From IMG/VR virus record IMGVR_UViG_2888331157_000001: a stretch of DNA of 64,000 bases. One strand, 5' to 3'. The notes beneath the pieces are model-generated. The model searched no databases, was not told the origin of the DNA, and saw only the letters and a program-made list of their open reading frames with translations. The translations under genes were made by a program, and so were the position numbers. Each line of letters opens with the position of its first letter. Position 1 is the stretch's first letter. This document shows, one piece after another, positions 10,955 to 38,495 of this stretch. This DNA comes from an uncultured virus (IMG/VR IMGVR_UViG_2888331157_000001) (taxonomy: Duplodnaviria > Heunggongvirae > Uroviricota > Caudoviricetes).

Positions 10955-11034
10955 GTTGGAATATTCCCACGACCGGCAATTCGACGCGCGTTGGATTTTT
11001 CCACTTGACGTAGTTGGAAAACTCCAACTATCGT
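10954..11034. promoter_or_regulatory. OR region and PR promoter
   Basis: Operators at 10954-10971, 10989-11006 and 11012-11029 (last is identical to the OL copy at 9615); TTGACG 11005-11010 and TATCGT 11029-11034. Confidence 0.85.
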
Positions 11035-11041
11035 TAGGCGC

Positions 11042-21894: not shown

Positions 21895-21958
21895 AGGTTC
21901 TCTCCAGGTTGCATGATTGCAGGGGCGGCGCCCGGCCGAAGCCGAGCGCCTAGACGTT

Positions 21959-22141
21959 TCAGCTTTGCGCCAGTTCGTAGCGATCGCCGTTCTTGTCGGT
22001 GGCGATAGTCGGTACGCCGTTGGCACCACCGGTGATCTTGTCCACGCCGAGCACCTTGATCGCCTTTCCCTCAGCGTCGACGGCGTTGATGGTAATGCGG
22101 CCGCCGGCGCGCTTGGCAGTCCAACCGTTAAGCTTGTTCAT
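21959..22141 (-). CDS. Small hypothetical protein
   Basis: GGAG SD; preceded by the hairpin element. Confidence 0.65.
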   Translation of the reverse strand: MNKLNGWTAKRAGGRITINAVDAEGKAIKVLGVDKITGGANGVPTIATDKNGDRYELAQS

Positions 22142-22183
22142 TTCGATCTCCGTTGCGGTGTCATTGTTGACTGGGGTTTTCGC

Positions 22184-24064
22184 TCACGCGCCGATCTTGG
22201 CGGCGAGTTCTCGACGTTTTGCCTTGTGCTCTTCCTCCTTCTTCTTGAGTGACTGTTTCTTGGCAGGCGCCGCCTTCTTGCCCTTCAACGCATAGCCCTT
22301 GATGCGCAGCGCAGCAGGCAGCCAGCCAGTCTCCTTCGCCTTGTCGGCCGCCTCGCGCGCCATGTCTGCCTTCTTGGCTTTGGACGAAGGATTGCCGGTC
22401 ATCTCCTTCATGGCCGCGTCGATCATGGGCTTGGTGCAGGCAGCGAACCAAGCTTCTGCATCGAAGGCCGCGACAGGATCGGCGGCGAAAGCGGTCATGA
22501 ACTCCGACCTGACCCGTTCGCGGATACCGTCGTTCGTATAATCTTTCTGGAACCACTTCTCCGTCAGGTCGATCGTCATGGCAAACAACCCGGCGACATG
22601 AGCGAGCAACTCATCGCCTGTCTTCTTCGACAGATATTCGAACGCTTTATGGATGCCTCGGCTCTTAGAGTCGCTGCGGGAACCATAACCGTATACGTCG
22701 ACACGCTGGACCTGCAGCCTGGTCGGGCGGCCGATGCCCATACAGTGTTCGTCCTGGTGCTCCAGCATCGAGGCGATGAGTGCCAGCGCCATATGCGGAT
22801 TGGCCTGCACGGCCACCTTGAGAGCTGCCGTTGACGTCTCGCCGATCTTGTCCTTGAGCGGCTGCGTTAGTGCCAGAGGGTCCTTCGTCGCCTTGGCTGC
22901 GGCAGCCAGCGGTTCGTCGCCATCATCCGCTTCGCCGTCTGCGTTGAGCTTGGCACCTGGCTTCAGGCAACCACGGCGGATGCGAAGTGTCTCCGCGTCG
23001 AAGACGATTCCGGTTGCCGCCACCTGCTCGGCCGAGAAGCAGTTCGCCTTGGCTTCAAGGGAATCGTATTCTGCGTTGAGCTTCTCAACCTCCGGATCGT
23101 CTTCCATCGCGCCTTCGAGTTCATCGGCGATGGCATCCATCCGAGCCGTTTCTTCGTTGGTGAGTTCGATGCCTGCCGGCGAGACAGCACGAACCGCATA
23201 GGCGTCGTTGATGCCAAGCTCCTCGGTTGTGGCAAAGAACGCCCAGCCTTCGGCAAGCGCTTCGGCGCGCAGCTTTTCGATGGCCTCCGCCTTCAGCCCA
23301 GGGATGAGGTCGGTACTGATCCACATCGAATCTTCGCCGAACAGATCCTCGTGGACGATACCGCCAGCCGCTTGGTAGGCGTCGACGCCGATAAAGCTGG
23401 CCAGGGCGCTGGTGGCTTCAACTGCTGTGTGCCGCATCGCGTTCTTGATGGCCCACGATTCGCCTCGATTGTAATTCCCGGCGTCATTGAAGTGTTTGAT
23501 CTGCGCGTCCTGATCGGGATTGGTGGTGTACGCGCAGGCCGCGCCGAAGTTGACCTTGCCATCCTCGAATGCCGCCAGGATTTCTGGATGCAGCCGCGCC
23601 AGCGCCAGCCGCCCCTTAACGTAACGATCAGTCTGGCCGAAATGGAGCGCAACATCCTCAACGGATTTTCCGCCCTCGACGAGTTTCAGGAATGCACGGA
23701 ACTCGTCGGCCGGCGTCATCTGCTCGCGGATCAGGTTTTCGGCGAGAGATAGTTCGGTAGCGGTTGCATCGTCGGTGTCCCGGATGGTGATTGGCACCGG
23801 GTGGTCTGACGGGAGTTTTCCCTCCTGCACGAGCTCGCCCAAGGCTATCCATCGGCGCCCGCCGGCAAAGATGCGGTAGAGCTGCCCTCCGAGATCGGCG
23901 TCGCCGGTGACTGGCGGCCGCACTGCAATCGGCTGGATGATGTCGTGCGCGAGGATCGAAGCCTTCATCTCCACGATTGCCTCGCGGCTGTGCTTCTTGC
24001 GGACGTTTGCAGCGTCGTCACGGATGAGACGGTCGAAAGGTACTTTCGGTTGTTCGGACTGCAT
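22184..24064 (-). CDS. Large ParB/RepB/Spo0J-domain protein
   Basis: NVRK, IIQPIAV, AGGRRW, LAENLIRE.M.PADE, HTH, RLALARL. Confidence 0.88.
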   Translation of the reverse strand: MQSEQPKVPFDRLIRDDAANVRKKHSREAIVEMKASILAHDIIQPIAVRPPVTGDADLGGQLYRIFAGGRRWIALGELVQEGKLPSDHPVPITIRDTDDATATELSLAENLIREQMTPADEFRAFLKLVEGGKSVEDVALHFGQTDRYVKGRLALARLHPEILAAFEDGKVNFGAACAYTTNPDQDAQIKHFNDAGNYNRGESWAIKNAMRHTAVEATSALASFIGVDAYQAAGGIVHEDLFGEDSMWISTDLIPGLKAEAIEKLRAEALAEGWAFFATTEELGINDAYAVRAVSPAGIELTNEETARMDAIADELEGAMEDDPEVEKLNAEYDSLEAKANCFSAEQVAATGIVFDAETLRIRRGCLKPGAKLNADGEADDGDEPLAAAAKATKDPLALTQPLKDKIGETSTAALKVAVQANPHMALALIASMLEHQDEHCMGIGRPTRLQVQRVDVYGYGSRSDSKSRGIHKAFEYLSKKTGDELLAHVAGLFAMTIDLTEKWFQKDYTNDGIRERVRSEFMTAFAADPVAAFDAEAWFAACTKPMIDAAMKEMTGNPSSKAKKADMAREAADKAKETGWLPAALRIKGYALKGKKAAPAKKQSLKKKEEEHKAKRRELAAKIGA

Positions 24065-24119
24065 GCGTGGTTTCTCCTGTATGGCATGATTGCCGGGTGG
24101 TGAGCGGCTGGCCGCCGCA

Positions 24120-24335
24120 TTACTTCCAGAGGATCAGATCCGATCCATCCAGAAACTGAAGACGTTCGTCGACAGACGTCGCCTTGCTGGTTGTGCCGGC
24201 GCCGTAGCGCACGAACACGATTCTTGCCTCGACGTTTACGGAGGTGACGATGCCCTGCTCGGGCCGGGCATTTGGGTGAGCCGCCGTGTAGATGACGGTG
24301 CGGCCGACCCAAGGGTGAGTAAAATCAACTGGCAT
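24120..24335 (-). CDS. Small hypothetical protein
   Basis: GGAGG SD; beta-rich. Confidence 0.55.
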   Translation of the reverse strand: MPVDFTHPWVGRTVIYTAAHPNARPEQGIVTSVNVEARIVFVRYGAGTTSKATSVDERLQFLDGSDLILWK

Positions 24336-24843
24336 CGGTGCCCTCCAGAACTTCAAAGCGTCCGTCTTCAAACTCCTCGCGGGGACGTGCCCACAGCGAA
24401 CCGTCATCGACGCTGCGATAGATGGCGACTTCCCGAAGATCGACCAAGGCGGTCTCGTCCTCGTCGACGGCTATGTCGCGCCAGTGTTCAGCCTGCATCT
24501 TACCGATGCCGATCAGCGCGTATGTGCTGCCCCGCTTCTTGTGACGGTGGGTTGGCGCGTCCTGCGAGCCCTGCACTGGATGGGATGCGAGCGCTTCGGC
24601 AACTTTCCCGCAATCTGCACCGCTCGTATGGCACCGAGGACAGCAAACATCGCTGTCGTCGCCGAAACTATCGGTGCCGCAATGCTTCGACGAGCCTACC
24701 CAGCCGCAATGATCACATGAGGCAAGATAGTAGGGCTCGCTTGCCTCGAGCGAGACGATCGGGCCAGAGTAGGCAGCCATCTGCTTGAGGTCTTCGAGAC
24801 GATGTTCCTCTGGCGTCATTGCGCCATCCTCATTGTCAGTCAT
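24325..24843 (-). CDS. Zn-ribbon + DUF1653-like protein
   Basis: CDHC...CPRC; THRHKKRGSTY...IYRSVDDGSLWARPREEF. Confidence 0.65.
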   Translation of the reverse strand: MTDNEDGAMTPEEHRLEDLKQMAAYSGPIVSLEASEPYYLASCDHCGWVGSSKHCGTDSFGDDSDVCCPRCHTSGADCGKVAEALASHPVQGSQDAPTHRHKKRGSTYALIGIGKMQAEHWRDIAVDEDETALVDLREVAIYRSVDDGSLWARPREEFEDGRFEVLEGTDAS

Positions 24844-25676
24844 GTTGATTTCCTTTCTGCCATGTTTGGCGGGACAGTGAAGTCGAACGCCATCTGGCCG
24901 GCCTTGGGTGGCGCGGCCTTTGAGACTTTGCGGATGATGGGCTCCGGCGCTTCGATTGCCGGCACTGCGATCGGCTCTGTCGGCGCCGGCGTTGCGATAT
25001 CGAACCGCTTCGGAAACAACCAAGCAGTCGGCGTCAACGAGTAGGCCCACTCTTGCAACGTCAGGGCGTTCCCATGCACTACGATGCCCGAAACGCCGGC
25101 AAGCGACGTCTGAATGTAGCAACCAGCCATCGCCTTGAACTCAACATCGATCATCTGCCAGTGGCAGTGCCGGGCAGGTTCGAAGCCCTGCTCGCGCATG
25201 ATCTCCGCAACGGCGAGAACCATGCCGCCCATGCCGGCGGCAGGCTCATGCGCGGTGAAGTAGCCGCGCGGTGAGGCCGCGATCATCTCGCCAAGGTCAG
25301 GCATGTTCACTCGGGCGATTAGGCTAGAGAGCTCATGCGGCGTGAAGAACTGGCCGTGGTCCTTCGAGCCGCCGATATCCATGTAGACCGGGCCGAGGAA
25401 GTCTTCGCACTTCGCCTCGAGCGCTTCGACCGTGTGGCCCAGCATCTCAACCAGCGCCGCCATAGTCTCCTTCGGGTGACGGCAGCGGCGGACGATCTTC
25501 ATGTATTCGTCCTCGTTCTGCTGCCAGGCATCACCGTGCAGGAACGCGCCGCGGATTGATCGATAGCCAGCTTCAAGGAATGCACGGAAGGCGTCGTATT
25601 GGGTCCAACCTTCCTGACGGCTCAGGGATTGGGCAAGGCGGACGAACGCCTTGCGGTGGGTGTCATGCGGATGCAT
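24840..25676 (-). CDS. Truncated HsdM-like N6-adenine methyltransferase family protein
   Basis: DFLG..Y, GQFFTP, EPAAGMGGM (motif I), IDVE, HGNAL; no NPP[FY] motif. Confidence 0.75.
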   Translation of the reverse strand: MHPHDTHRKAFVRLAQSLSRQEGWTQYDAFRAFLEAGYRSIRGAFLHGDAWQQNEDEYMKIVRRCRHPKETMAALVEMLGHTVEALEAKCEDFLGPVYMDIGGSKDHGQFFTPHELSSLIARVNMPDLGEMIAASPRGYFTAHEPAAGMGGMVLAVAEIMREQGFEPARHCHWQMIDVEFKAMAGCYIQTSLAGVSGIVVHGNALTLQEWAYSLTPTAWLFPKRFDIATPAPTEPIAVPAIEAPEPIIRKVSKAAPPKAGQMAFDFTVPPNMAERKST

Positions 25677-25729
25677 CCGCGATCTCCATCTTTGCCATAG
25701 TCGGCGGGTTCGATCAGGTTGGCCGGTAG

Positions 25730-26566
25730 CTATTTCTTGCGGGCGCCTACCTCCCGGGCGCGGTGTTCGAGCTTGGCGGTGGCCATGATGATCGGCTTCA
25801 ACTCAGTCGGAGCATGGTCATAGTCGCGGCCGTATTTCCCGTTGAGGCGGGGCAGCATAGCGCGCGGCACGGCCTCCCAATTCGACGGGTCGGTGTTGAG
25901 CCTGTCACCGTTTATGCATTTGAGCGCCATGCCGACAGGCAATTGACCATTGGCATCTTCCCACCGGATCTTCTGGACAGTCTGCCAGCGCGACTGTCGC
26001 GGAAGGCCATCATGGACCTTCCGTTCAAGATACCCTTCTTTGCTGAACCGCTCGGTTCCGATCGGTTTGTACTTCTCGGCAGCGGCACCCGTTATGCCGC
26101 CCTTCTTGAACTGGGTCTTGCGGGCATTCGGGTGGCGCCCGCCTTTGCCCGGAGGACACCGCTTTCCTTTGTTGACGGGCGTCATGCCCTTCTCGAAACA
26201 GCCTGTGCGGCCCGTCTTCCAGCCTTTCCGCTTGCGGAGAGCATGCAGGAATCTGGGATAGACATCCTCGCGGCCGAACTTGGTGCAGAACTCGCGGCAG
26301 TAGTCGGAGACGACCATGTCGGCGTTATCTCGAAGCCAGTTCATTTCCTCCGTCGAGAATTTTCGATGGCGACCGTAGAATCGACCCGGGGCACGCCCGA
26401 CGAACCATCCCTTGCGCTTCCTCAGCCCGTGGAGGTTGAGCGCGGAGATATCGTTTCTACGAAACAGCTCGACGAAAGCACTGTGATAGTCGCTGATGAT
26501 CATCGTGCGATTGGCTTCGAGCCAAGCCATCTCGTCGTCGCTGTAATGGATTGGCCGCCCCCTCAT
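25730..26566 (-). CDS. HNH endonuclease-like protein with duplicated N-terminal repeat
   Basis: Two (Y/F)S..EM.WL..N...LH.LRKRKGW repeats; FKKG repeats; NGDRLNTDPSNW (His degenerate). Confidence 0.75.
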   Translation of the reverse strand: MRGRPIHYSDDEMAWLEANRTMIISDYHSAFVELFRRNDISALNLHGLRKRKGWFVGRAPGRFYGRHRKFSTEEMNWLRDNADMVVSDYCREFCTKFGREDVYPRFLHALRKRKGWKTGRTGCFEKGMTPVNKGKRCPPGKGGRHPNARKTQFKKGGITGAAAEKYKPIGTERFSKEGYLERKVHDGLPRQSRWQTVQKIRWEDANGQLPVGMALKCINGDRLNTDPSNWEAVPRAMLPRLNGKYGRDYDHAPTELKPIIMATAKLEHRAREVGARKK

Positions 26567-26814
26567 TTCCCGTCGATCTCCCTGGGCCCGGAGAGCATTG
26601 GCAGGTCTTTGCGGAACCTGTCGCCGTGGTTTGCGACCAGCGTCGCAGCAGCAATTCCAAGGCGTGCGTTGTCGACGATCTTGTCCGCGATCTGGACCAT
26701 CGCCTCCGTGCGCTGGACTTCCGCTTCGAGCTCATCGCTGGTCAATCCCTCTTGCGAGAGACGCTCCATCTGCGCGAACAAATGATCGTTGAGATCGGTG
26801 ATACGGTTCTTCAT
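26563..26814 (-). CDS. Hypothetical phage protein
   Basis: MKNRITDLNDHLFAQMERL motif; AAGGAG SD. Confidence 0.7.
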   Translation of the reverse strand: MKNRITDLNDHLFAQMERLSQEGLTSDELEAEVQRTEAMVQIADKIVDNARLGIAAATLVANHGDRFRKDLPMLSGPREIDGK

Positions 26815-27052
26815 TGTAGATCTCCTTGCGGTGCCATAAGTGGCGGGGTGCGGCGGTCAGGCTGCGGTATCACTCTATCGGCGCAGGACCTTCGCGCCAA
26901 GACTCTCTCGGGTCGAGCAAGCTGCGGTACCGGAGCCGAACTGGAACGCTCCGGACGTCAACCTGCTCCTCGTACTTCTTGCCGGCCTGAGTGGCGTCCA
27001 CCCACTCAGCGCCGTCATAGTCAAAGTCTGCTCTGGCCATTGTCGATGCCTC

Positions 27053-28228
27053 CTAGGCTGCGGTGAGGTAGACAGACTCTCCGAACGGCGTCTTTGCCGC
27101 CAGATCATCGAACGTTCGACTGTCGCCAAACACCGCCCAGATCACCGGGCAATTCGGAGCCTTGCCGAAATCATGAACGTAGAGGTCGGTGAAGAAAACG
27201 ACGGCGGATGCGTCACCGGCATTCTTCGATATCCACTCGAAGACGCCAGAGAACGCGGTACCGCCGCCGCCTTTTGGATCGAGTGCAAGCTCGTCACCGG
27301 CTTCATACGTCTCGACGCGCTGCACCTTCGTGTCGGCGTAGATCACGGTGATGCGATCGACCATGCCGTCGCCGAACGCGCCATTGATCTCGGATGCAAA
27401 GGCAGTCAGCGCCTTGGCGTCGATCGAGCCCGAGGTGTCGACGCACACCACCAGATGAGCAACGCCATCCGATATGACGCCAGGCAGCACCATGTTCTGG
27501 TGCAAGAACCGGCGGTTCGGCCGCGCCCACGAGAAGTCCTTCACGTTGCTCTCGTCGATGAAACGCCGCAGCACTGAGCGCCAGTCGATCACGGGCCGGG
27601 TCAGGCGATTGATCAGCCGCTTCAAGCCGGCCGGCATATTGCCCGCCATCTTCCCGTTGGCGATCGCCGCCGCCTGCCGCACCCTCGTCTCGATGTCGGC
27701 CTTCGCGTCGGCCAGGCCGGCCTCATCGAATGGCGAGCACGCGTCGATCACGCCGCCGCATCCGCCCGGGTCGTTGCCCTGCTGCTGACCGCCGCCGCCA
27801 TTCTGTTGCGCTTCCTCTTCGAGGATACGACACACCTCCTCTGCACCCATGCCAGTGAAGCGCGGATTGAGCAGGCCGCCCTTGGGCATGGAGCCGACAT
27901 TGGTCTCGGACAACTCACCGTTGATGCAGTAGTCCGCCGCGATGTTCCAAAGCCGAGCGTCGCGCATCTGCCGGCGAATGTGGTGCTGCAGCGCGTTGTG
28001 CATCACCTCGTGCGCCAGAACGAAGATCAGCTCCTGCTTGGTCAGGCTCTCCACGAACGGGCCGTGGACGTAGAGCCGCTTCCCGTCGGTGGCCATCGTG
28101 TCGATGCGCGGATCGCCCGTGGCGTCGACCAGTTCGAGCTGGATGGCGAGCGTGGCGAAGAACGGATGATCCCACAGCAGCGACGTGCGGGCGGCGAGCA
28201 ATTTGTCTTCGACTGCTTTGCTAAGCAT
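27053..28228 (-). CDS. DUF2201-type metallopeptidase + VWA-like domain protein
   Basis: PFFATL, TMATDG, HEVMH (HExxH), WNIAADYCIN; MIDAS DTSGS, GGGTAF, FTD. Confidence 0.9.
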   Translation of the reverse strand: MLSKAVEDKLLAARTSLLWDHPFFATLAIQLELVDATGDPRIDTMATDGKRLYVHGPFVESLTKQELIFVLAHEVMHNALQHHIRRQMRDARLWNIAADYCINGELSETNVGSMPKGGLLNPRFTGMGAEEVCRILEEEAQQNGGGGQQQGNDPGGCGGVIDACSPFDEAGLADAKADIETRVRQAAAIANGKMAGNMPAGLKRLINRLTRPVIDWRSVLRRFIDESNVKDFSWARPNRRFLHQNMVLPGVISDGVAHLVVCVDTSGSIDAKALTAFASEINGAFGDGMVDRITVIYADTKVQRVETYEAGDELALDPKGGGGTAFSGVFEWISKNAGDASAVVFFTDLYVHDFGKAPNCPVIWAVFGDSRTFDDLAAKTPFGESVYLTAA

Positions 28229-28529
28229 CGGGATATTCCTTCTCAACTTGCTGATGGATCATGAACGCGACAGCGGCGGAAACTTCGGCAGCGGATAGCC
28301 GAGACTTCAGTAGCGTCGCGCAGGAGAGCTTTGACCAAGTGCTCGGTTGCTGATCGGCGCGGCACGTCAACACCAGCCAACAACGATCACGGCCACGGAG
28401 ATAGAGATAGTATCGGCGGTCTCCTGACATGCGCCCGAATTGCCAGAACATCGTCGGACCCAGGCTTGTCGAAAACGACGTGGTGAACCCTGTCGGAACA
28501 AGGTGCGAAAGCCATTGCGCCCGGGTCAC
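28221..28529 (-). CDS. Paralogue-array member 7
   Basis: WQF...RYYLYL...RCW; C-terminal LLKSRLSAAEVSAAVAFMI. Confidence 0.7.
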   Translation of the reverse strand: MTRAQWLSHLVPTGFTTSFSTSLGPTMFWQFGRMSGDRRYYLYLRGRDRCWLVLTCRADQQPSTWSKLSCATLLKSRLSAAEVSAAVAFMIHQQVEKEYPDA

Positions 28530-28804
28530 GACAGCCCTCCCTCGCGGATCGAAGCCGCCATGCAGGCAGCGATCTCCGAAGGCAGGAGCATTAGCTTGAG
28601 AATTGCCACCTGACGGTCGTTGACCGCATACCTCCTCACGTGACCACCGGGCGTGAACCGCTCACATCGGTATGCCGTGAACCCGCGCTCGCTCTCCCAA
28701 TAGCGGAGTTCATAGAAGACCAGAGGAGCAACTTGGCCGGGCTTCTTGAGGTGCCATTGGAAACGACCGGCATGCTGGCACACCGTGTAGTGCTTGAGCT
28801 TCAT
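28526..28804 (-). CDS. Paralogue-array member 6
   Basis: WHL...FYELRY...RGF; ILKLMLLPSEIAACMAASI. Confidence 0.7.
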   Translation of the reverse strand: MKLKHYTVCQHAGRFQWHLKKPGQVAPLVFYELRYWESERGFTAYRCERFTPGGHVRRYAVNDRQVAILKLMLLPSEIAACMAASIREGGLS

Positions 28805-29124
28805 GACTGATCTCGCGGATCGTAGATCGAGGCGGCCATGCAGCGGGCAAGCAATTCTGGTGGCAGGGCCGCCTGGAACGCATCGACCGTATCTGCTGAT
28901 ACGGGTCCCCGGAAATCTTCCCAGCTCCCTCGGCGAGAACGAATGAAACGGATGCCGAGCGCGAAAAACCGATGTGGTGGAGAGTAGATCAGTTCGTACG
29001 TCCAGCGAGGATAATCCCAGCCACGGGTATGCCAACGGAACCTGAACTGATCGCCTTTGCAGCGCGGTCCGAACAGTTCGCGACGGATGGTTTCGGCATC
29101 AATGCACTCGATCAAATTGGGCAT
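28801..29124 (-). CDS. Paralogue-array member 5
   Basis: FGP; FRW...TYELIY...RFF; AFQAALPPELLARCMAASI. Confidence 0.7.
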   Translation of the reverse strand: MPNLIECIDAETIRRELFGPRCKGDQFRFRWHTRGWDYPRWTYELIYSPPHRFFALGIRFIRSRRGSWEDFRGPVSADTVDAFQAALPPELLARCMAASIYDPRDQS

Positions 29125-29153
29125 GATGGGTTCCTGTTTCACCAGCGGCAATC

Positions 29154-29453
29154 TCAGAACGGAAGGTCTTCCTCTTCCGGCGGCGGCGCAGTCATCGCCC
29201 TCCGCATGCATCCGGCAACATCTTCATCGGAGAGCATTCCTTGGAAGGCTTGGCGCTGCTCAGGATCATCGATGCTGACGACCTCAACTACTTTTTGCCG
29301 AGAGAGTAAGAAGCGCCTCTCCGACAACATGAAGGTGAGGAAGTAGCGGTGTTCCAGGGCCGGCGACTTCCACTTGATCGGCTCGAACCACCAACGATTG
29401 ACATCCACCTTCTTGATTTCGAAATATTCATTGATGAACTCTTGCGTCATCAT
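29154..29453 (-). CDS. Paralogue-array member 4
   Basis: WWF...RYFLTF...RRF; AFQGMLSDEDVAGCMRRAM. Confidence 0.7.
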   Translation of the reverse strand: MMTQEFINEYFEIKKVDVNRWWFEPIKWKSPALEHRYFLTFMLSERRFLLSRQKVVEVVSIDDPEQRQAFQGMLSDEDVAGCMRRAMTAPPPEEEDLPF

Positions 29454-29776
29454 CGTCCGTGTCTCCTATGAAATTCGAGTGCCAGGCGGGTGGCCTCGGC
29501 TATGTCTTCGGGCTTGAGTTTGGCGCGCAGCATGGGTGTGACGCGACCGCTCAATGGTGGTGTTGCAACCGGCAGCGCAGCCAGTTTCGCGGCCTTCTCT
29601 TCATCGCCCGGATGGCCGGGCAATGCTTTCGTGCTGAACCGACGGCTGTCGAACCAGAAGGCGAGATGCCAGCGTGCGTACTCGCCGTTCGTGCGCAGGC
29701 CGGAAAAGCTCCACGCCAGCCGATCTTCGCGACAGGTTTTGCTGCTCGGGCCCCAGATGACCTTAATCTCAGCCAT
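29450..29776 (-). CDS. Paralogue-array member 3
   Basis: WGP; WSF...RWHLAF...RRF; MLRAKLKPEDIAEATRLAL. Confidence 0.7.
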   Translation of the reverse strand: MAEIKVIWGPSSKTCREDRLAWSFSGLRTNGEYARWHLAFWFDSRRFSTKALPGHPGDEEKAAKLAALPVATPPLSGRVTPMLRAKLKPEDIAEATRLALEFHRRHGR

Positions 29777-30162
29777 CAGCGTACCGCCTTCATTGCGAGA
29801 CGGGCGGCAAAGGCGATGTCCTCTTTCGACAGGCGAGGTTTCAGGATGTCGAGGTAAGTCCGGCCGTAGAGCATGGGCTTGTCCGGAACATACGCATCGA
29901 CAAAGGCGGGGTCGAGCAAGGGCTTCTCCCACTTCCCGCCGACCTTGATGGCCTCGGCCATCGGCAGGGCGAAAGCAGACCATTCTCTTTCCCGGACCTT
30001 GAACCGCACGCACCAGCGGCCCATCGAATTGTCCTCGCGGATGCCGAAGAAATGCCAATCAACCTGTCGGACCCAACCATGTGGCGGGTTGACGACAGCC
30101 TGACCTACTCGATCTTCCGACCGCCCGAACGGTCCATAGAGGGCGCGGAGGAAGACAGTCAT
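29776..30162 (-). CDS. Paralogue-array member 2
   Basis: YGP; WHF...RWCVRF...REW; ILKPRLSKEDIAFAARLAM. Confidence 0.7.
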   Translation of the reverse strand: MTVFLRALYGPFGRSEDRVGQAVVNPPHGWVRQVDWHFFGIREDNSMGRWCVRFKVREREWSAFALPMAEAIKVGGKWEKPLLDPAFVDAYVPDKPMLYGRTYLDILKPRLSKEDIAFAARLAMKAVR

Positions 30163-30506
30163 CCTTGCCGCCTCCCCGTGATGCCAAGGGCGGTGGCAAA
30201 GCCAATCTCCGCCGCCGGCAGCATCGCCTTGAGAGCGGTGAGTAAATCGCCACGAGGCAGGTCGCTGCGCCCAATGGCGACGTGCTGGTAGAAGCGCCGG
30301 ATTGTTGAGACGTGCGCTTGATCGCCGATATCCGATTTCAGCGCCTGGACGGTGAACTTCCGCGTCTCAGCCTTGTATCGCAGCCGGTAGCGCAAAAGCT
30401 GCTGGTTGCGGTTTTCGGCCACGAACTCCCACGCCAGGTCGAAGGCTGTATATTTGCCCTCGTAGTACCGCGTCGGGCCGGCAATCCATATGATTGGCGC
30501 ACTCAT
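30159..30506 (-). CDS. Paralogue-array member 1
   Basis: AGP; WEF...RYRLRY...RKF; ALKAMLPAAEIGFATALGI. Confidence 0.7.
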   Translation of the reverse strand: MSAPIIWIAGPTRYYEGKYTAFDLAWEFVAENRNQQLLRYRLRYKAETRKFTVQALKSDIGDQAHVSTIRRFYQHVAIGRSDLPRGDLLTALKAMLPAAEIGFATALGITGRRQG

Positions 30507-30724
30507 GACGGTTGCCTGTTCTGCTGTTGCCACCAGTGGAGATAGCAGTTCCGCTGCTCCGCCTTCGGACACCCTTCCCACCACAGCCGGCACGTCCCCG
30601 GCCCGGCTTGTGGATCACGGCCGCAGGTCTTGGCGCCCTTCCGAACCGGTCGGTATGACCATGTCGACTGCAGCGGGTCATCGAACAGGCGGGGCTCACC
30701 CGCCTGCTGTGCGTTCTTGTTCAT
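30503..30724 (-). CDS. Small Cys/Trp-rich hypothetical protein
   Basis: GAGG SD; stop overlaps the next ATG (ATGA). Confidence 0.45.
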   Translation of the reverse strand: MNKNAQQAGEPRLFDDPLQSTWSYRPVRKGAKTCGRDPQAGPGTCRLWWEGCPKAEQRNCYLHWWQQQNRQPS

Positions 30725-30735
30725 CACCGGCGACC

Positions 30736-31728
30736 TCAGTTGAAGGTGACGTCCTGATTGCGGACGGCCCAATCCGTGAACACCTGCGTATGAGAAAGCT
30801 TGTTGTCGCGCCGGACCGCATCGACCGTGAACATGATCTCGAACTCGCGACCTTGGATACGCTGTGCGTAGATCATGCCGTTCTCGAAGCTCTTGGCATC
30901 CACCTTGCGGGCCAGGCCGGAAGCCATGGCGTACTTGGCGGCAGGCTCAGATGGCACCGGTGCAGAGTTCGGATTAGCAAGCACCAGATCAAGCGAAGGA
31001 AGCTGCTGGTAGACGCGAATGAACCCCTCGAACTCGGCCGCGGCGCCATCACCAACAATTCCCCTCACCGCCTCACTGCGCAGCGCTTCGGGAGCTTTGA
31101 TCACCTTGGCAACGCTCTCCCAGGCACGCGGCGTCGGGAACGCACGTAGATCGGCCGCGCCTTCCATGTTGTGCAGGAGCGCCGGCCGAAAACGCAGAAA
31201 GGCAAGCAGCAGCGGATCCACGTCGATATCGATGAAATGCTGAACCGTGGTGTCGACATCCGGGTCGATATCGATGTGAGCGAAGCGGTTGGCCAGAGCG
31301 GAAGGCATACGCTGCGCAGCCGCCTTGTCGGACTGCCGGTTGCCTGCTGCAATGATGCGCCAGCCGGGAGGCATCGTGTATTCGCCGACCTTCCGGTCCA
31401 GCACGAGACCGAAGGCTGCAGCCTGCATCGAGGGAGCCGCAACGTTCAGTTCATCCAGGAAGAGAAACCCGCGCTCGCCGTCGCGCTCCACTTGCGGGAA
31501 CTCATCCGGCACCTTCCATTTGGCAGTCTCACCCTCGACCGAGGGAATACCCATCAGCGCGACCGGGTCACGTGTCGAGCAGCGAAAGTCGATCACGTTG
31601 ACGCCCTGCTCTTTGGCGAGCTGTTTGATGAGCGAGGACTTGCCCACGCCCGGCATGCCCCACAGGAATGCGGCGAGATCGGCGTAGATGTAGAGCGACA
31701 GCAGTTCTTTGGCGCGCTTGAGGTTCAT
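30736..31728 (-). CDS. MoxR-like AAA+ ATPase
   Basis: WGMPGVGKS, FLDELN, IIAAGN, ALANRF, FPTPRAW. Confidence 0.92.
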   Translation of the reverse strand: MNLKRAKELLSLYIYADLAAFLWGMPGVGKSSLIKQLAKEQGVNVIDFRCSTRDPVALMGIPSVEGETAKWKVPDEFPQVERDGERGFLFLDELNVAAPSMQAAAFGLVLDRKVGEYTMPPGWRIIAAGNRQSDKAAAQRMPSALANRFAHIDIDPDVDTTVQHFIDIDVDPLLLAFLRFRPALLHNMEGAADLRAFPTPRAWESVAKVIKAPEALRSEAVRGIVGDGAAAEFEGFIRVYQQLPSLDLVLANPNSAPVPSEPAAKYAMASGLARKVDAKSFENGMIYAQRIQGREFEIMFTVDAVRRDNKLSHTQVFTDWAVRNQDVTFN

Positions 31729-31743
31729 TGATAGAGTTCTCCA

Positions 31744-32052
31744 TTATTTGCCATGCTTGGCGGGTTGGGATGAGGCTAGGAGTGGGGGCAGCGGCTCCAG
31801 ACGCGGAAACGGCTGTCCTATCTTGTTGAATTCGATAGTGACCCGGCGGAGGGGGTAACCCCGCGACCGTGATCGGTCCTCCCGGATCGCGTCGATCTGC
31901 GCTTGCACGTAGATCCAGCGCTCGCCGTTATCGACGCGGGGTTTGTTGTCTTCCGAATGTGTGATCAGGAACCACGCATCGGAGATTAGCTCCTTGTGTA
32001 TTTCGCCGTCGATCTCGCGGCGGACGTACTCGCCGATCGATTCTCCTGGCAT
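31744..32052 (-). CDS. Hypothetical protein
   Basis: Fills the gap in the operon. Confidence 0.5.
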   Translation of the reverse strand: MPGESIGEYVRREIDGEIHKELISDAWFLITHSEDNKPRVDNGERWIYVQAQIDAIREDRSRSRGYPLRRVTIEFNKIGQPFPRLEPLPPLLASSQPAKHGK

Positions 32053-32055
32053 TGG

Positions 32056-32448
32056 TCAGAACCAGACGCGGCGGCGGAAAAGCACTGCTGGTCCGCAGAT
32101 AGGTGGCATGGTTGCGGCGTCGTAGTTGTCCGGGTCGTGAGTGCGGATGTTGTTGTGATAGATGTCCGTCGCACGGACGTTCCGGATCATCTTGCCGTTG
32201 ATCGCCGAGCGGTCCCCGACGAACATGTCGACATATTCGCCATCCACGAACACCCGGACGCGTTCCATGCGCTCTCCGGCGAGATGCGGCTCGATCACAG
32301 CACGAAGGGCATCGAGGCTTGGCCGAGCCGTCAACTGGGTTTGGCGCTGCTGCACCTCCCCTATCTCGGGAATGACAAAATAGTCGGTCAACATGTCGGC
32401 CGCCCAAGCAACGAGCCAGTTGGGATCGACTTCGCTAAGGTGAGGCAT
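32056..32448 (-). CDS. Hypothetical protein (DUF3846-like)
   Basis: PSLDALR...E.V...MFV......N.RAT...ICGPAVLF pattern. Confidence 0.55.
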   Translation of the reverse strand: MPHLSEVDPNWLVAWAADMLTDYFVIPEIGEVQQRQTQLTARPSLDALRAVIEPHLAGERMERVRVFVDGEYVDMFVGDRSAINGKMIRNVRATDIYHNNIRTHDPDNYDAATMPPICGPAVLFRRRVWF

Positions 32449-32452
32449 CGCA

Positions 32453-32638
32453 TCACTGCACCAGCGGTTGGTTGGCATCAATCTTGGCTTGGATACGAGC
32501 GATCCGCGCGTCATCTTCCGGTGTCGAACCGAAGAACGCGCAGTCGTCTCGCAAAGTATCCAGCCAGAGGCGCAGATCGGATATCTCGTGGAGCTCTAAC
32601 CGGCCCTCTCGATCGAGCAGTTCCTGCAGGTGGCTCAT
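32453..32638 (-). CDS. Hypothetical protein
   Basis: ATGA coupling. Confidence 0.55.
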   Translation of the reverse strand: MSHLQELLDREGRLELHEISDLRLWLDTLRDDCAFFGSTPEDDARIARIQAKIDANQPLVQ

Positions 32639-32844
32639 TGGATCACCGGCTGGTTGGCGACGATCGTCACATCCGCGTTCGTGGCGAGGTCGATCACGCG
32701 GATGCCCTCGATGCCGTCGACCTGGTCGTCAGCAAGCGTGGTCTGGTCGGCGTGATAGGCTGCGAGTGCAGCGGCGGGTGATGCAGCTGTGACGACGTGA
32801 TACTCCGTGCAGCGCGTCGACACGGCGACGTGGTAGCGTTTCAT
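32635..32844 (-). CDS. Hypothetical protein
   Basis: AAGGAG SD plus hairpin element. Confidence 0.65.
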   Translation of the reverse strand: MKRYHVAVSTRCTEYHVVTAASPAAALAAYHADQTTLADDQVDGIEGIRVIDLATNADVTIVANQPVIQ

Positions 32845-33113
32845 AACGGGTCTCCTTTTTTCGCATGATTGCGGGGCGTGCCTGGGTGGCACGGATGGTG
32901 GCTCACTCCGGTGAAGTGGCGCCCGTTTCGATTGCCCCAGTGCCAAGCTTTGCAGCCTAGGCAGTAAAAGATGCCGACGGGCGCAAACAAACCGAGCATG
33001 CCAACTGTGCGAAGCGCCCAAACGGCGTTCACTGCGTCAGCAGGGGTGGCGTACGGGACTTTCGGAGTACGCCGGCACTGCTTGCGCCGCTTTCCAAGAA
33101 AGCCGAGCGGCAT
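32841..33113 (-). CDS. Small Zn-finger-like protein
   Basis: K.PYAT...A....YCLGCKAWHW. Confidence 0.55.
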   Translation of the reverse strand: MPLGFLGKRRKQCRRTPKVPYATPADAVNAVWALRTVGMLGLFAPVGIFYCLGCKAWHWGNRNGRHFTGVSHHPCHPGTPRNHAKKGDPL

Positions 33114-33114
33114 G

Positions 33115-33438
33115 TTACCGGCCCTTCGCCTTCGCAAGAGCCGCATGGCCGGCGTCGGAAAGTACTTTCAGCCCTTTCCAGTTCTCGTTTAGGCCGCTGG
33201 TCTGCCGCTCGTCTATCTCGATGTCGATCTCATGCAGGATTGCCCCGAGCGCCGCGCGCATCTCCTTTGCGGCTGACAGCAGATAGGCGTTGGCAAGCGC
33301 GTCTCCGTTCGCCTTGCCACCCTTTGAGCCGATGCGGTGGACACCGCAGATGACGACTGCCGGGGTGGTGAGCGCTACAATGCGGACGAGGCGTCCATTG
33401 CTCACCGACCACGTGCCGTCCGTGGGTTGCGATTTCAT
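33115..33438 (-). CDS. Hypothetical phage protein
   Basis: T.GTW...ANAYLLSAAKEM.AAL...AALAKAKG; GGAG SD plus hairpin element. Confidence 0.7.
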   Translation of the reverse strand: MKSQPTDGTWSVSNGRLVRIVALTTPAVVICGVHRIGSKGGKANGDALANAYLLSAAKEMRAALGAILHEIDIEIDERQTSGLNENWKGLKVLSDAGHAALAKAKGR

Positions 33439-33484
33439 CGTGTTCTCCATGATCGCATGATTGCGGGGTTTGGAGGCGGCTGCT

Positions 33485-33745
33485 TCAGCCGCCGCCGGTA
33501 TCAATTTCGATTGATCTGGGAGTCATTTCCTCGTCCACCCAAAACAAATCGTCTTCGCCGCAAGCGACATAAAGCACGCAGTTTGGAAGGATGGTGGGTA
33601 GAAAATTACCTTTGGCATCGATCGATGTTACGCCACAGAATGGCTGATGATCAGTGCTCGATTGCGAAAACTGACGGCGGAGACTGTCCCGGGCGCAGTT
33701 TAGAAGATCAAGGTATTGCTCGCCGGTCATACGCATCGAGGTCAC
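33485..33745 (-). CDS. Hypothetical protein
   Basis: GTGA coupling with the upstream gene. Confidence 0.5.
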   Translation of the reverse strand: MTSMRMTGEQYLDLLNCARDSLRRQFSQSSTDHQPFCGVTSIDAKGNFLPTILPNCVLYVACGEDDLFWVDEEMTPRSIEIDTGGG

Positions 33746-34650
33746 GCCAAAAAACCGGAAACCTGATCGAGGATCTTCTTCGCCTCGGCCGCCACATCCT
33801 TGCGGACACCTTCGTTCTCGCGCAGCACTTGCGCGTCCCAGGCGGCGAGCGGACGCAGGCGATCGACCATGGCGGTCAGTTCCGGATCACCAGTGATGTT
33901 CAGCATCGGCAGCACTTCGATCAGGTCGCGGACGTTGAGGACGAGCGAGTCGCGGAAGGCGCCTTCCGTCTGGTCTCCTTTACGCGCGGCGGGGCGGTAG
34001 GCGGTAAGCCGTTCCGCCATCCTGCCGGCGACATCGGCGACACGGCGATAGACATCACGGACCGCGGTGGCCGCACCCTCGCGCACCTGGCGCTCGATAT
34101 CCGCCCGGATGACGTCCGCTTGAGCTTCGGACATTGAGACACGGAAGTCTTCCGGCGTCGGCACGGGCAGCTTGCGCAACTCCATGCTGTAGCGATCGCG
34201 CAGTGAGTCGACCGTTGGATAGTCGGCGTCCTTAAACAGGCCGGACATCCGGTCCGGAGCGCTGCGGACCAGTTCCGGATATGAGGCGATGAACTCGCCC
34301 ACGGCGTCCATGAATTTCTGCTTCTGGAGCGACAGCCAGCGGTCGTTCGCCATGATCGCGGCCGCATTCATGATCCGGCCGCCGCCATCCATCCAAGGCA
34401 GAGTGCGCTTGTCGAACTCGGCGCGCGTGGCGCTGACGATCGACTGGATCGGTTGCAACGCCTCCTTCGGCAGCAGCAGCTTGTTGAACCGGCCGGCGTC
34501 GGCAGACGCACCATGCTCGCGGTTCACTTCGTCGGTGATCTGGCGATCGAGGCGACGGCCAGACCACTGCGTGATGTGCAGCGACACGACCACGGCGCGC
34601 GCAGCGAGTGTGGCGGTGACGGATGACGGAATACGGGCATGAGCGTTCAT
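33742..34650 (-). CDS. DUF3150-like protein (frequent neighbour of MoxR/VWA genes in mobile elements)
   Basis: VSLHITQWSGRRLD...KLLL...TLPW...YP...F/Y; family call from memory. Confidence 0.65.
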   Translation of the reverse strand: MNAHARIPSSVTATLAARAVVVSLHITQWSGRRLDRQITDEVNREHGASADAGRFNKLLLPKEALQPIQSIVSATRAEFDKRTLPWMDGGGRIMNAAAIMANDRWLSLQKQKFMDAVGEFIASYPELVRSAPDRMSGLFKDADYPTVDSLRDRYSMELRKLPVPTPEDFRVSMSEAQADVIRADIERQVREGAATAVRDVYRRVADVAGRMAERLTAYRPAARKGDQTEGAFRDSLVLNVRDLIEVLPMLNITGDPELTAMVDRLRPLAAWDAQVLRENEGVRKDVAAEAKKILDQVSGFLA

Positions 34651-34742
34651 GCTTCTGGTCTCCATGGGTGCCATGATTGGCGGGGTTAAACGACAGAGCG
34701 ACCTATCGCTTGACGAGAACGTGCCGTGAACGTGGCACGGAG

Positions 34743-35117
34743 TCAAGGCGCTTCTTTGTACCGTGGCGTGTCAGGCAGCACGCCGACCATGCGCACGCGC
34801 GTGGCGTCGGCAATATCCTCACCTGTCAGCAGCGAGATCGCGGCGTCCACCAGCCTGTCACCCTTGAAGCGCGGGAAATCGAGCGAGGGATAGGCGTAAA
34901 TATCGGCAGGGATTTTGTATCGCTCGAAATTGGATGAATACGTCTGTGGCACGTCAAAGTATGGACGTGAACGCGCGGCGGCGCGGCGTGTGACCGCGTC
35001 GACCGTTACCTCTTGACGGCTCTGGAATCCGGCTTCGCCAATGAAGACGAACCAGAATTTCAGTTTTGAGGCTGTCACCTGCCGCGCGTAGGGACCAATC
35101 AAGAGATGTTCCATCAT
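34743..35117 (-). CDS. Outlying paralogue-array member 8
   Basis: IGP; FWFVF; C-terminal AAISLLTGEDIADATRVRM. Confidence 0.6.
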   Translation of the reverse strand: MMEHLLIGPYARQVTASKLKFWFVFIGEAGFQSRQEVTVDAVTRRAAARSRPYFDVPQTYSSNFERYKIPADIYAYPSLDFPRFKGDRLVDAAISLLTGEDIADATRVRMVGVLPDTPRYKEAP

Positions 35118-35356
35118 GGCTGGCTCGGGCGCAGCTCAGTCGTCTTCATGAACTCGATGAGACGCAGGCGCTCTTCCCGCTCCGTGTCCGTCTCGACACG
35201 CGGTCGCTCGAGCCAGGCAAGGACCATGGCGCGGTGTTCCTCGCTGTATGGGCGGCCATCCTCGAAGAAAAACGAGAACATGCAGGCGCCGGGGTCACCG
35301 GCGCGCAGATAGGAACCGTAGGCGGAGGCCGCGCCGTAAGCGTGGCGGCGGTTCAT
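35114..35356 (-). CDS. Hypothetical protein
   Basis: GGAGG SD; ATGA coupling. Confidence 0.6.
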   Translation of the reverse strand: MNRRHAYGAASAYGSYLRAGDPGACMFSFFFEDGRPYSEEHRAMVLAWLERPRVETDTEREERLRLIEFMKTTELRPSQP

Positions 35357-35700
35357 TGGTTGCAACCCTCCACCACGATCACTTCCCGCGGATTGGGAGG
35401 CACTACCGCGCCAGTCATGGCGTCCGAAAACGTGTCGCCCTGCCCGACGACATATTCGTCGCCTGTCCAGTCCACGGCCGAGACCGTGCAGACGGGCGCA
35501 TGCATGACAGTCCACCACGCTTGCGCGGCCATGGTGGATACGATGACAAGCGCGGCGACAAGCGAGCCGATAAGAATGATGGAGGCGCGCTGCGCTCGGA
35601 TTTCGCGCAGGCGCTGGCCCTCGAACTCGCCAACGAAGAACGGATTCCGGCCTTCAAGCGAAGCGGTATCGTTCACGGGAACACGGTCGGGATTCAGCAT
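35353..35700 (-). CDS. Hypothetical membrane-anchored protein
   Basis: Hydrophobic IILIGSLVAALVIVSTMAA segment. Confidence 0.6.
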   Translation of the reverse strand: MLNPDRVPVNDTASLEGRNPFFVGEFEGQRLREIRAQRASIILIGSLVAALVIVSTMAAQAWWTVMHAPVCTVSAVDWTGDEYVVGQGDTFSDAMTGAVVPPNPREVIVVEGCNQ

Positions 35701-35891
35701 GGCCAGCCGCTTTCGAGAACGCGGGCAGACTGGAGACGGGTGCGCTGCGCGCGGAAGAAATCGCATTCGCGCGCGAGATCTTCCTCGAACTCGCGGCGGT
35801 CGCGTTCACGTGGCGTTTCATACGCAGGATGATGCCGGAAGGCGGCAGCGCGCGCGGTGCGCCTGTCGTCCGGCTGGAAGACGGATTGCAT
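35694..35891 (-). CDS. Small hypothetical protein
   Basis: GGAGAG SD plus hairpin element. Confidence 0.55.
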   Translation of the reverse strand: MQSVFQPDDRRTARAAAFRHHPAYETPRERDRREFEEDLARECDFFRAQRTRLQSARVLESGWPC

Positions 35892-36175
35892 GACGGATTC
35901 TCTCCATTGGTGCCATAAGCGGCGGGAAAAGGCAGTTTACCGACGTGCCAAGGTCCGGGCGGAATCCTACCGCCATGGCTTCCTCACATTGCCCTTCAGC
36001 GGGCTATCTGCGTTGCGCTGGTGGCGTGGCGCGCAGCTTTCCGGCTTGCTTTATCCCTCGCCCGGCGACGAGTCCGCGTGCGTCGTGGCGGTTGTTGAGG
36101 CTCGACCCTTCCACGCGATTTCGGCCATGTGGCCGCGTCTGGACGGATTCCTCCCGTCCACACGTAGCGACATGC

Positions 36176-36208
36176 AAAAAAGGCCGCGCGACAGAAGCCG
36201 CGCGGCTG
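36176..36208 (-). terminator. Intrinsic terminator after the first gene of the leftward operon
   Basis: Minus strand GCCGCGCGGC-TTCT-GTCGCGCGGC-CTTTTT. Confidence 0.75.
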
Positions 36209-36231
36209 GAGTGATGGATATCAGGCGAGGA

Positions 36232-36930
36232 TTAGGCAGCTGCGCTGGCCAGACGGTCGGACGCTTCACGGTCAACCTTGATACGCTTGATCGTGGAAGC
36301 GGGCGCAGCGTCCTTGTCGGATTCCGGCTTGGCGACCTTCGGACGGCTGGCCTTCGGCGCGGCTTCCTTGGTCTCCTCGCCTTCCACTGGCTTGGTTTCG
36401 GCCTGCTTGATCTCGACCACGTTCGAGGTTGCGGCAGCGGGCTTCGCCTTGGCCGTCATCTCGCGGTATTTCTTGATCTGGGTGGCCATGAACAGGGCGA
36501 AGTTCTTGTCGTCCTGACCCGCGTCGTCGTCGTCAAGCGTGGCGTCCGCAATCTTGCCAATACGGTCGACAAGCGGTGCCTTGGCCTTGGCTTCGGTCGA
36601 TTTCTTGTCCTTTTCATAGTCCGCCGGCGACGTGGTGAATGCGGCCGGAAGGTCGGATTTCTTGCCCTTGGCATAAGTGAACACCAGCTTGACCGCGTCA
36701 AACGCGACCTTGCCGAACGCGGTCATCCACTTGACGACGGCGGCGCGGTAATTCTTGGGCGTGGCCGAGTAGATGGCGTTGCAGTAAATCGCGTCGTGAT
36801 GTTGCTCGACGTGGTTCAGCGCCGAATAGGCAAGCTGGTGCGTCTTTTCGGTGAAGGTGGCGGCGGTCTTGCCGTAGCTGGCAACGGCGGTCTTGAGGGA
36901 CTTGCCGGTCAGGATTGCGAAAGCGGTCAT
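36232..36930 (-). CDS. First gene of the leftward operon; conserved-looking phage early protein with Lys/Ala-rich tail
   Basis: GGAG SD plus hairpin; strong codon bias; L.H..QH.D...PKNYR.A...W..AFG...F.Y.K. Confidence 0.8.
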   Translation of the reverse strand: MTAFAILTGKSLKTAVASYGKTAATFTEKTHQLAYSALNHVEQHHDAIYCNAIYSATPKNYRAAVVKWMTAFGKVAFDAVKLVFTYAKGKKSDLPAAFTTSPADYEKDKKSTEAKAKAPLVDRIGKIADATLDDDDAGQDDKNFALFMATQIKKYREMTAKAKPAAATSNVVEIKQAETKPVEGEETKEAAPKASRPKVAKPESDKDAAPASTIKRIKVDREASDRLASAAA

Positions 36931-37521
36931 GTTCATTTCTCCGTAGGTGGCATAATTGCCGGGTTTCGGTCTCAAGCGACCGTGACAGGCGCGTTCAGCG
37001 CCGCACCTGTCAGAGTGGCTTGAGTGTGACGCCGCGCAGCTCGCACCGCGCGGCGTCTCTCCTTCTTTGCCATGATTGGCGATTTGCGGTCTTACCGTTG
37101 CCAGCGTGACCGCATTCATTTGCGAGATTGAAATCTGAATTGTTCTTTCTCGAACGACTCGCCCTTGCGAGTTGCTAGCCTTCCGGGGACGGCGGGCCGC
37201 TTGGTGGCGTCCCTTCAAGCGGGGTCGTTTAACCCTCGCACCGCGCATTTGTTCCCGTGCGCTCTACCGTCTCGCCTGCCCGCTTCGTTGCGCGGCGTAC
37301 CTTGGTAGCCCCATTGTTTCGATAAGTCGGCGCAATGGGAGCGCCCGTACGGCTGGCCTAGTGAGTCACCACTGGCATCGGACCGTCTGCTATAGGTTCA
37401 AGGCCGCGCCCCCTCGCCTGCCTGCCAATCGTCCAGCCTTGCCAGCCTGCCATCCAGAAGGATGACCGCTTGACGTTGCCAGCAACCGGCAAGCCCGAAG
37501 GCCGCTTGTCCTGTCACCACT

Positions 37522-37533
37522 CTGTCAAAGAAC
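37522..37533 (-). promoter_or_regulatory. boxA-like antitermination site
   Basis: Minus strand GTTCTTTGACAG about 30 nt after the predicted TSS. Confidence 0.55.
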
Positions 37534-37571
37534 TCGGCGAACTCGCCGCACCGCTAGGAAGCGATGGCCAA

Positions 37572-37626
37572 CACATAGAGGCATGCCGTCACCATGTCAA
37601 TATGCTTTTGCTATTTTATTCATTAT
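37572..37626 (-). promoter_or_regulatory. Sigma70-type promoter of the leftward operon
   Basis: TTGACA (37600-37595), 17-bp spacer, TATGTG; AT-rich UP-like tract at 37601-37626. Confidence 0.7.
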
Positions 37627-37955: not shown

Positions 37956-38080
37956 AGGAAGATTCGCGAAAAGCGGGTCAGAGCGACCGAAAAAACAGGG
38001 CAAAAACCCAGCATTTAGTACTGGTCCAATGAAAATTGTCAGGGCCGCGAAATTGATGGGTATTTTTGAAATTCACCTAA

Positions 38081-38280
38081 GCGGACAAATGCCGGACACC
38101 AGCCGGACAGATGGCGGACAAATGGCGGTTTTTGCCATTTGTCGATTTCGCAAAGCGCTGGACCAATTGAGGTTGTCAGCGTTCGGCCGGACAAAAGCCG
38201 GACAAACGGCGGACAAGTGACGATTCCGCCATGATCGATGGAACGGACAAACGGCGGACAAATGCTGGACATTTGGCGGT
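38081..38280 (+). repeat. Ten 11-bp-period GGACA-core direct repeats in three clusters
   Basis: GGACA at 38083, 38094, 38105, 38116; 38189, 38200, 38211; 38245, 38256, 38267. Confidence 0.9.
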
Positions 38281-38495
38281 TCTACGCGTGTGCGCACGGC
38301 CTTCAGCTATAACCTGAGAAGTAGGAGGCCCTCATAGGCCGACCTATCTTCGTCTCCCGTTAGAGCCCGTCATCGGAGGTTGTTGGGGGATGGCTGCTGC
38401 GCGCCACCCCGTTGACAGTCCCCCGCGTTTACGGTCAATTCCAGCCGCTGGCGAGAAAACCGCCCGGCTCCTCCCCTTCACAATCGAGCATTGGC

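Follow-up and report, generated by a model that had tools for sequence, protein, structure and literature searches.

What occupies the roughly 630 bases between the promoter and the first start codon of the early operon of this prophage? The window (the whole stretch of DNA analyzed here, 64,000 nucleotides) is almost entirely one prophage of ∼67 kb, with an integrase gene at 1-1098, a repressor-like gene at 10283-11065 followed by replication genes, and terminase, portal, protease, capsid, and tail genes from 39087 onward. Likely att sites are formed by a 16-nt direct repeat at tRNA-Arg(CCG), found 361 bases before the window on G000 C1 and at window-relative position 66874; by this repeat, both prophage ends lie just outside the window. 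The prophage also encodes GcrA-like, GapR-like, and beta-clamp genes (12016-12897, 12780-13340, and 20620-22029). The leader opens a long series of small early genes on the minus strand, whose start stands back to back with the packaging genes, and it lies 0.3 to 1.4 kb from those genes and from a set of 11-nt repeats at 38080-38281. These tandem repeats, between the promoter and an HNH gene, are a possible packaging or origin site, and other short repeats occupy the corresponding place in some relatives.

A conserved, untranslated RNA at the head of the early operon

The initial annotation described the leader as a gene-free stretch tiled with inverted repeats and proposed a large functional RNA, such as a put-like antiterminator, a protein sponge, or an anti-defense decoy. 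Its landmarks are in place: the −35 element TTGACA lies at 37600-37595 and the first ATG at 36930, and seven of the eight inverted repeats are exactly where it put them, the eighth being one base off (CCCATTG starts at 37310). The absence of a gene also holds, as the open frame upstream of the ATG runs for 111 codons in the window and for 30, 11, and 4 codons in the relatives L055, L056, and L006, and no reading frame conserved across leaders was found.

The folding comparison with shuffled sequences that the annotation had suggested gave z = −4.87 for the minus strand of 36930-37600, with none of 20 shuffles equally stable. The claim of dense structure throughout stands for the strand as a whole, but the excess of folding energy is confined to the 3' end: among 200-nt windows, 36931-37130 reached z −6.9 and 37031-37230 z −2.6, whereas the conserved core (z +0.8 to −1.3) fell among the values for 25 control windows taken in the early operon (mean −0.5, standard deviation 1.5, lowest −4.0). 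Since the excess sits in the last 200 to 300 bases and the middle resembles the controls, energy alone is insufficient as a case for an RNA.

Loci were gathered from genomes, IMG/VR, and metagenomes with the first gene of the operon (gene 1; PHROG 1448; 36232-36930, minus strand) as the anchor, so phages lacking both gene 1 and the leader would be missed. Relatives of gene 1 are early genes of phiKMV-like phages; the protein had no Pfam or PDB match and no named Atlas cluster at ≥0.9, and its N-terminal part gave a confident structure model. After duplicates (L003, L007, L011-L018, L042, L044, L048, L054, L058, and L059), contigs that were too short (L009, L053, and L060), and one weak match (L010) were left out, 35 leaders were kept, one of them identical to that of the window. 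They fall into 33 clusters at 90% identity and 22 at 75%, and most are just 52 to 63% like the window. The named relatives lie within genomes of Rhizobium, Ensifer, Pararhizobium, Hoeflea, Brucella (B. tritici and B. pecoris), Pseudovibrio, and Roseibium. The 35 leaders share one layout, identically ordered and oriented, at the operon's 5' end: a promoter, short hairpins, an rRNA-type boxA, a rod of ∼120 nt, and then one of two modules, A or B. In 15 of the 17 loci tested, the opposite strand carries a terminase gene upstream; 11 of these genes are gpA-type, and 4 belong to another type.

The comparison supports a large functional RNA, through covariation among relatives and a strand bias in tetraloops: in the sense direction, 55 of 143 are GNRA or UUCG loops, compared with 3 of 115 for the opposite strand, which identifies the minus strand as the working strand. 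Two of the individual repeats fared less well, CCGCTTG/CAAGCGG and TGCGGTC/GACCGCA being lost in the closest relative, L055.

The element is present once per genome, with no second copy and none at the late genes. No convincing copy of either module was found outside this slot in 150 genomes of the family, 150 of the order, and, for module A only, 150 of the phylum; four weak module matches away from the slot all lacked an upstream boxA. Distant relatives of gene 1 in RHph_Y1_20 and LKD16 are without a module. BLAST of the window's leader against named phages gave no match, and the leaders of two relatives gave none or a chance 25-mer. A pattern scan returned 24 matches, of which 21 were inspected and look like chance and the other 3 are known members; among the 80 listed of the 82 matches from a second scan, only two known members bear a module. 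Public RNA runs (4 of 24) yielded only contigs of depth 2 to 6, scattered across gene 1, the leader, and beyond, one of which (X18, 183 nt) spans 37221-37403, the conserved core, though such coverage does not establish transcription or transcript ends.

The Rfam scan likewise suggested by the annotation returned, at the gathering scores of the family models, no match in the window and only a tRNA in 10 loci, and the core had no match at E values up to 10. We found no description of the leader RNA in the literature, including the available text of PMC8632103, PMC13753749, PMC4604424, PMC5737381, and 10.1101/2024.12.08.627333. The six supplementary files of PMC10690425 that were searched contained no match to five motifs, and the RNA may stand unnamed among the 10,000 candidates of that study. 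On comparative grounds, the leader is a real, conserved, uncatalogued structured noncoding RNA that combines a boxA of the rRNA type with an exchangeable pseudoknot module.

Three candidate identities were rejected. The hatchet ribozyme has no Rfam match at E values up to 10, and the similar words in module B form a pseudoknot instead. Pseudomonas sRNA P6 (RF01683, a 510-position model) scored 31.9 bits against a cutoff of 50, over a single hairpin on the opposite strand, and the pattern of that hairpin found only this phage in IMG/VR. A likeness to group I intron motifs fails across leaders at the P7-like pairing.

A promoter, boxA, and rod laid out as in rRNA leaders

The leader begins with a host-type (sigma-70) promoter, ATTGAC-N17-CTATGT (37573-37601, minus strand), recognized by its match to the host-type consensus CTTGAC-N16-18-CTATAT, with which the host rRNA promoter (GTTGAC-N18-CTATAT) agrees. 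It is the only minus-strand match of at least 10 of 12 positions in the window, and its position suggests a transcription start near 37565. Promoter scores of at least 7 occurred in 21 of 35 leaders and 5 of 35 controls. An E. coli-type promoter scan did not list this promoter, no second strong promoter was found downstream, and no operator shared between it and the repressor region was found. Two short hairpins, predicted by folding, follow in the position of a boxB (37535-37565, minus strand); their pairs are kept in L055, and their loop sequences differ among relatives.

Directly downstream is a boxA, GTTCTTTGACA (37523-37533, minus strand), 10 of whose 11 bases match both boxA sites of the host rRNA leaders. 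The family word, GTTCTTTGA(A/C)A, occurs with at most one mismatch in 28 of 35 leaders and in 0 of 31 control stretches, with a chance expectation of about 1e-4 per 700 nt; 15 leaders are exact, 13 have one mismatch, 6 have two, and 1 has three, boxA having been placed by hand in 6 leaders (L028, L029, L036, L043, L046, and L052). Both host rRNA leaders carry GTTCTTTGAAA with two hairpins before it and a long rod after it, and the host encodes a NusB-family gene. The available text of PMC13753749 gives the boxA consensus as UGCUCUUUAACA in E. coli and AUGAUCUUUGAAA in B. subtilis. Two unrelated phage contigs, L105 and L162 (around 1500), have a promoter, hairpin, and boxA leading into tRNA-like sequence or directly into a gene; this arrangement without a module indicates that boxA can work alone. 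A host repeat of ∼300 nt is present in 16 copies on G000 C1, 90 to 97% alike (e.g., C1:1074938-1075239, L096); at least 4 copies end in a boxA-like word, and the copy tested had no Rfam match.

Domain I, which follows boxA, is a predicted rod of ∼120 nt (37395-37518, minus strand) with a conserved G-U, G-U, U-A motif that sets GGU at 37487-37485 opposite AUU near 37429-37427. In an alignment of 8 relatives, from which the window was excluded, 20 of 29 predicted pairs show compensatory double changes and the wobble motif is nearly invariant. The consensus rod fold was obtained with this 8-sequence subset and was absent from a sequence-only alignment of 28 leaders. A GATT lies inside the rod in 34 of 35 leaders.

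These elements recall the leader of rRNA operons (boxB-boxA-boxC, served by NusA/B/E/G, SuhB, and S4, as outlined in the available text of PMC8632103 and PMC13753749), with which the phage leader shares a host-type promoter, hairpins, a near-identical boxA, a long rod, and a long untranslated RNA. It differs in that a pseudoknot module and protein genes follow rather than rRNA, and its rod sequence is unlike that of the rRNA leader by eye. The sequence features tested fit the proposal that the first 170 bases of the phage leader would work like an rRNA leader.

Two interchangeable modules and the 3' end of the leader

The window carries module A. Its stem P4 (37347-37387, minus strand; strands 37387-37383 and 37352-37347) has 89% of cells paired and both sides changed in 4 of 6 pairs over 11 sequences, the window's own P4 having a one-base irregularity; it encloses hairpin P5 (37375-37357), parsed by eye, with a UGAC-type loop. 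An H-type pseudoknot follows (37310-37345, minus strand), whose stem P6 (37345-37341 with 37333-37329) is 100% paired with double changes in 3 of 4 pairs. The repeat CCCATTG/CAATGGG, originally read as a hairpin, is really the second helix of this pseudoknot, in which the loop CCCAUU (37339-37334) pairs with the downstream AAUGGG (37315-37310), preceded by an invariant GACUU. Loops form a mean of 5.8 Watson-Crick pairs with their own partners, and at least 5 in 10 of 12 leaders (3 in L008 and 4 in L020), compared with a mean of 2.7, and at least 5 in 0 of 124 combinations, with the partners of other leaders. Two near-duplicates were omitted from this test; such controls remove relatedness incompletely, and the loops nonetheless differ among many lineages. 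The consensus structure strings are partly out of register, and only the P6 and P4 helices were taken from them. The 3' half of the module (37155-37309, minus strand) comprises AAGGU, a variable, putatively multihairpin stretch, and a candidate GCUAGC hairpin; it shares short blocks with L006 and L055 and has large insertions and deletions among relatives.

Model searches assigned module A to 14 leaders, 11 of them training sequences, and module B, for which the model covers the core only, to 16 (12 strong, 10 of them in training, and 4 weak). Two more leaders were assigned to B by eye, and 3 were assigned to neither. The module B pseudoknot is 97.8% paired, compared with 11 to 51% when the partners are slid. 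Both modules have a common build, with a UGAC-loop hairpin, a pseudoknot with a GAC..AAA linker, and then AAGGU. Eight closely related loci indicate that the module has been exchanged: both flanks and the gene are 73 to 92% alike regardless of the module carried, and A and B, only 46 to 56% alike, sit in flanks of 77 to 92% identity. An apparent hybrid, by eye, follows the boxA at 811 in L043 and joins a B-type core to a 3' stretch like that of the A-type leaders L020 and L023.

Between the module and gene 1, the minus strand carries an A-rich linker with a local hairpin and a start-less copy of the ribosome-binding-site (RBS) hairpin (37058-37154; copy at 37081-37058). A GC-rich hairpin without a U-tract comes next (37028-37057), at the site of an intrinsic terminator in many relatives; a hairpin with a U-tract precedes gene 1 in 15 of 35 leaders, the window not among them. 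A long, nearly unbranched hairpin of 21 pairs (36971-37024, minus strand) is a candidate RNase III-type processing stem. Such a stem precedes the gene 1 RBS in 27 of 35 leaders, compared with 10 of 135 control stretches downstream of gene starts; a laxer count separates poorly (31/35 versus 59/102). Several relatives carry small inserted ORFs in the gap separating the RNA from gene 1. An intrinsic terminator with a 10-pair stem and U-tract follows gene 1 (36183-36206, minus strand), and a stricter script, which missed this one, placed terminators there in 17 of 33 loci. Gene 1 is also followed by another structured intergenic stretch (35891-36232, minus strand), an 80-nt part of which recurs in L050 and L031 at 79 to 81% identity.

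The RBS hairpin itself (NNCA-ANYA-UGNN), followed by GGAGA, lies at 36938-36963 before gene 1 and has 12 minus-strand copies in the window, 11 of them before start codons. Of its copies across the 35 loci, 75 are in sense orientation and 6 lie on the opposite strand, with four stem variants. In the window (21909-36962, minus strand), 11 early genes have it directly before their Shine-Dalgarno sequence, and its stems covary and include G-U pairs; it may serve as a translational operator bound by a protein or as a point at which recombination shuffles genes. The start-less copy noticed in the initial annotation is thus present, but the sponge that it suggested is weakened by its occurrence in only 3 of 34 other leaders (L006, L026, and L055, the last spotted by eye).

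Possible functions of the leader RNA

Our preferred reading, tentative and at a little short of even confidence, is that the element serves the main early operon as an antitermination leader encoded in RNA, which loads the host Nus complex and aids passage of intrinsic terminators. Host polymerase would start at ∼37565, and boxA very probably loads the NusB-S10/NusA/NusG/SuhB complex as on rRNA, keeping Rho off 630 untranslated bases, by analogy with E. coli and B. subtilis. In E. coli, the boxA complex obstructs Rho, displaces NusA from the exit channel, and acts as a folding chaperone, according to the available text of PMC13753749 and PMC8632103, and its loading would explain the survival of so long an untranslated stretch. 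The rod and pseudoknot module, whose structure is shown by covariation, would fold behind boxA. In what is the weakest step, they may then act in cis on the elongating polymerase, which would pass the terminators around gene 1 without a phage N protein, while the long stem before the gene 1 RBS could let the leader be cut from the message. Modules A and B would be two interchangeable solutions to one job.

We favor a cis role because terminators follow, neither an N-like gene nor a second strong promoter was found, the module is nearly always present, and its two forms share a build; presence in nearly all leaders suits an essential role better than optional cargo. Against antitermination stand the missing U-tract of the window's hairpin before gene 1, the single copy per genome, and the module-free promoter, hairpin, and boxA of L105 and L162.

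Known antitermination systems offer partial parallels. The HK022 put sites and B. subtilis EAR are also structured RNAs placed early in terminator-containing operons with no known antiterminator protein, and to our knowledge few RNA-only antiterminators have been reported. The put element is ∼65 nt with two hairpins in the available text of PMC8632103, whereas the phage leader is ∼600 nt (conserved unit, ∼400 to 600 nt), combines boxA, rod, and pseudoknot, and occurs once. No put- or EAR-type Rfam match was found. Of the proposed put-like antiterminator, the antitermination role gains a basis in the rRNA-type boxA (37533-37523) that the annotation had missed; the element is not put, since its size and build differ and no second copy was found in the genome. 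The lambda pL leader (nutL, N) likewise has a boxA in the leader of the main early operon and a candidate processing stem. Here, the hairpins precede boxA, which is the rRNA order and the reverse of nut as given in the available text of PMC8632103. Unlike lambda, the phage leader has no conserved boxB loop and no recognized N. Proteins of the N type are short and poorly covered by Pfam; no antiterminator family was found among the 52 and 68 prophage proteins scanned, and many small ORFs of the prophage are without a family.

The same architecture would also suit a stand-alone RNA, made in the manner of rRNA and released to act in trans very early in infection as a decoy or sponge for a host defense or regulatory protein; boxA would then merely protect and chaperone its synthesis, with a terminator or the long stem setting the 3' end. 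A module of 230 to 300 nt that contains large insertions and is flanked by a terminator and a processing stem would fit a released RNA equally well, and in rRNA operons and CRISPR arrays it is untranslated RNA that follows boxA (available text of PMC13753749). The 3' boundary signals (terminators in 15 of 35 leaders and long stems in 27 of 35) and the low A-to-B similarity within far more similar flanks, the pattern of a swapped cassette, lead us to regard this plausible, if less favored, reading as nearly as likely as a cis role; the small ORFs inserted between RNA and gene 1 point the same way. It accounts less readily for a module that is almost never missing and for the shared topology of A and B, and neither modules away from the slot in the genomes sampled nor a target was identified. 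Large pseudoknotted prophage RNAs of similar length do exist in GOLLD and ROOL (659 nt to over 800 nt, of function not established in the available text of 10.1101/2024.12.08.627333), from which the phage leader differs in lacking an Rfam match, in lying away from tRNA islands, in its fixed place at the head of the early operon, and in its much smaller conserved core.

A pseudoknot module that cleaves itself or senses a ligand, so as to process or switch the early transcript, is improbable. A compact pseudoknot with invariant unpaired bases (GACUU) would be in keeping with either, and module B locally resembles the hatchet ribozyme sequence in the available text of PMC4604424; yet the similar words occur in another pairing context, no family of ribozymes or riboswitches matched at E values up to 5 to 10, and no metabolic gene lies downstream. 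Very unlikely, and largely refuted by the covariation, is the idea that the repeats act as DNA (packaging or origin signals by the genome end) or arise incidentally in a GC-rich intergenic stretch, for despite the proximity of packaging genes and of the 11-nt repeats at 38080-38281, and a core that energy alone does not set apart from shuffles, the G-U pairs persist, tetraloops are strand biased, the pseudoknot covaries, and the element is kept beside two unrelated terminase types.

Returning to a boxA-dependent leader, we consider it possible, at rather less than even confidence, that the element represents a new class, either an RNA-only antiterminator or an early anti-defense RNA. In such a class, temperate phages of the Rhizobiales would borrow the rRNA complex through boxA for a pseudoknotted RNA with two sequence-unrelated, interchangeable forms that modifies polymerase or neutralizes a host factor, at the genome end likely to be read first. 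With two natural folds that swap in one slot beside terminators, the choice between action in cis on polymerase and action in trans becomes a question that can be asked directly. If the preferred reading is true, the leader would illustrate how temperate phages of the Alphaproteobacteria can express long early operons with no recognized N protein.
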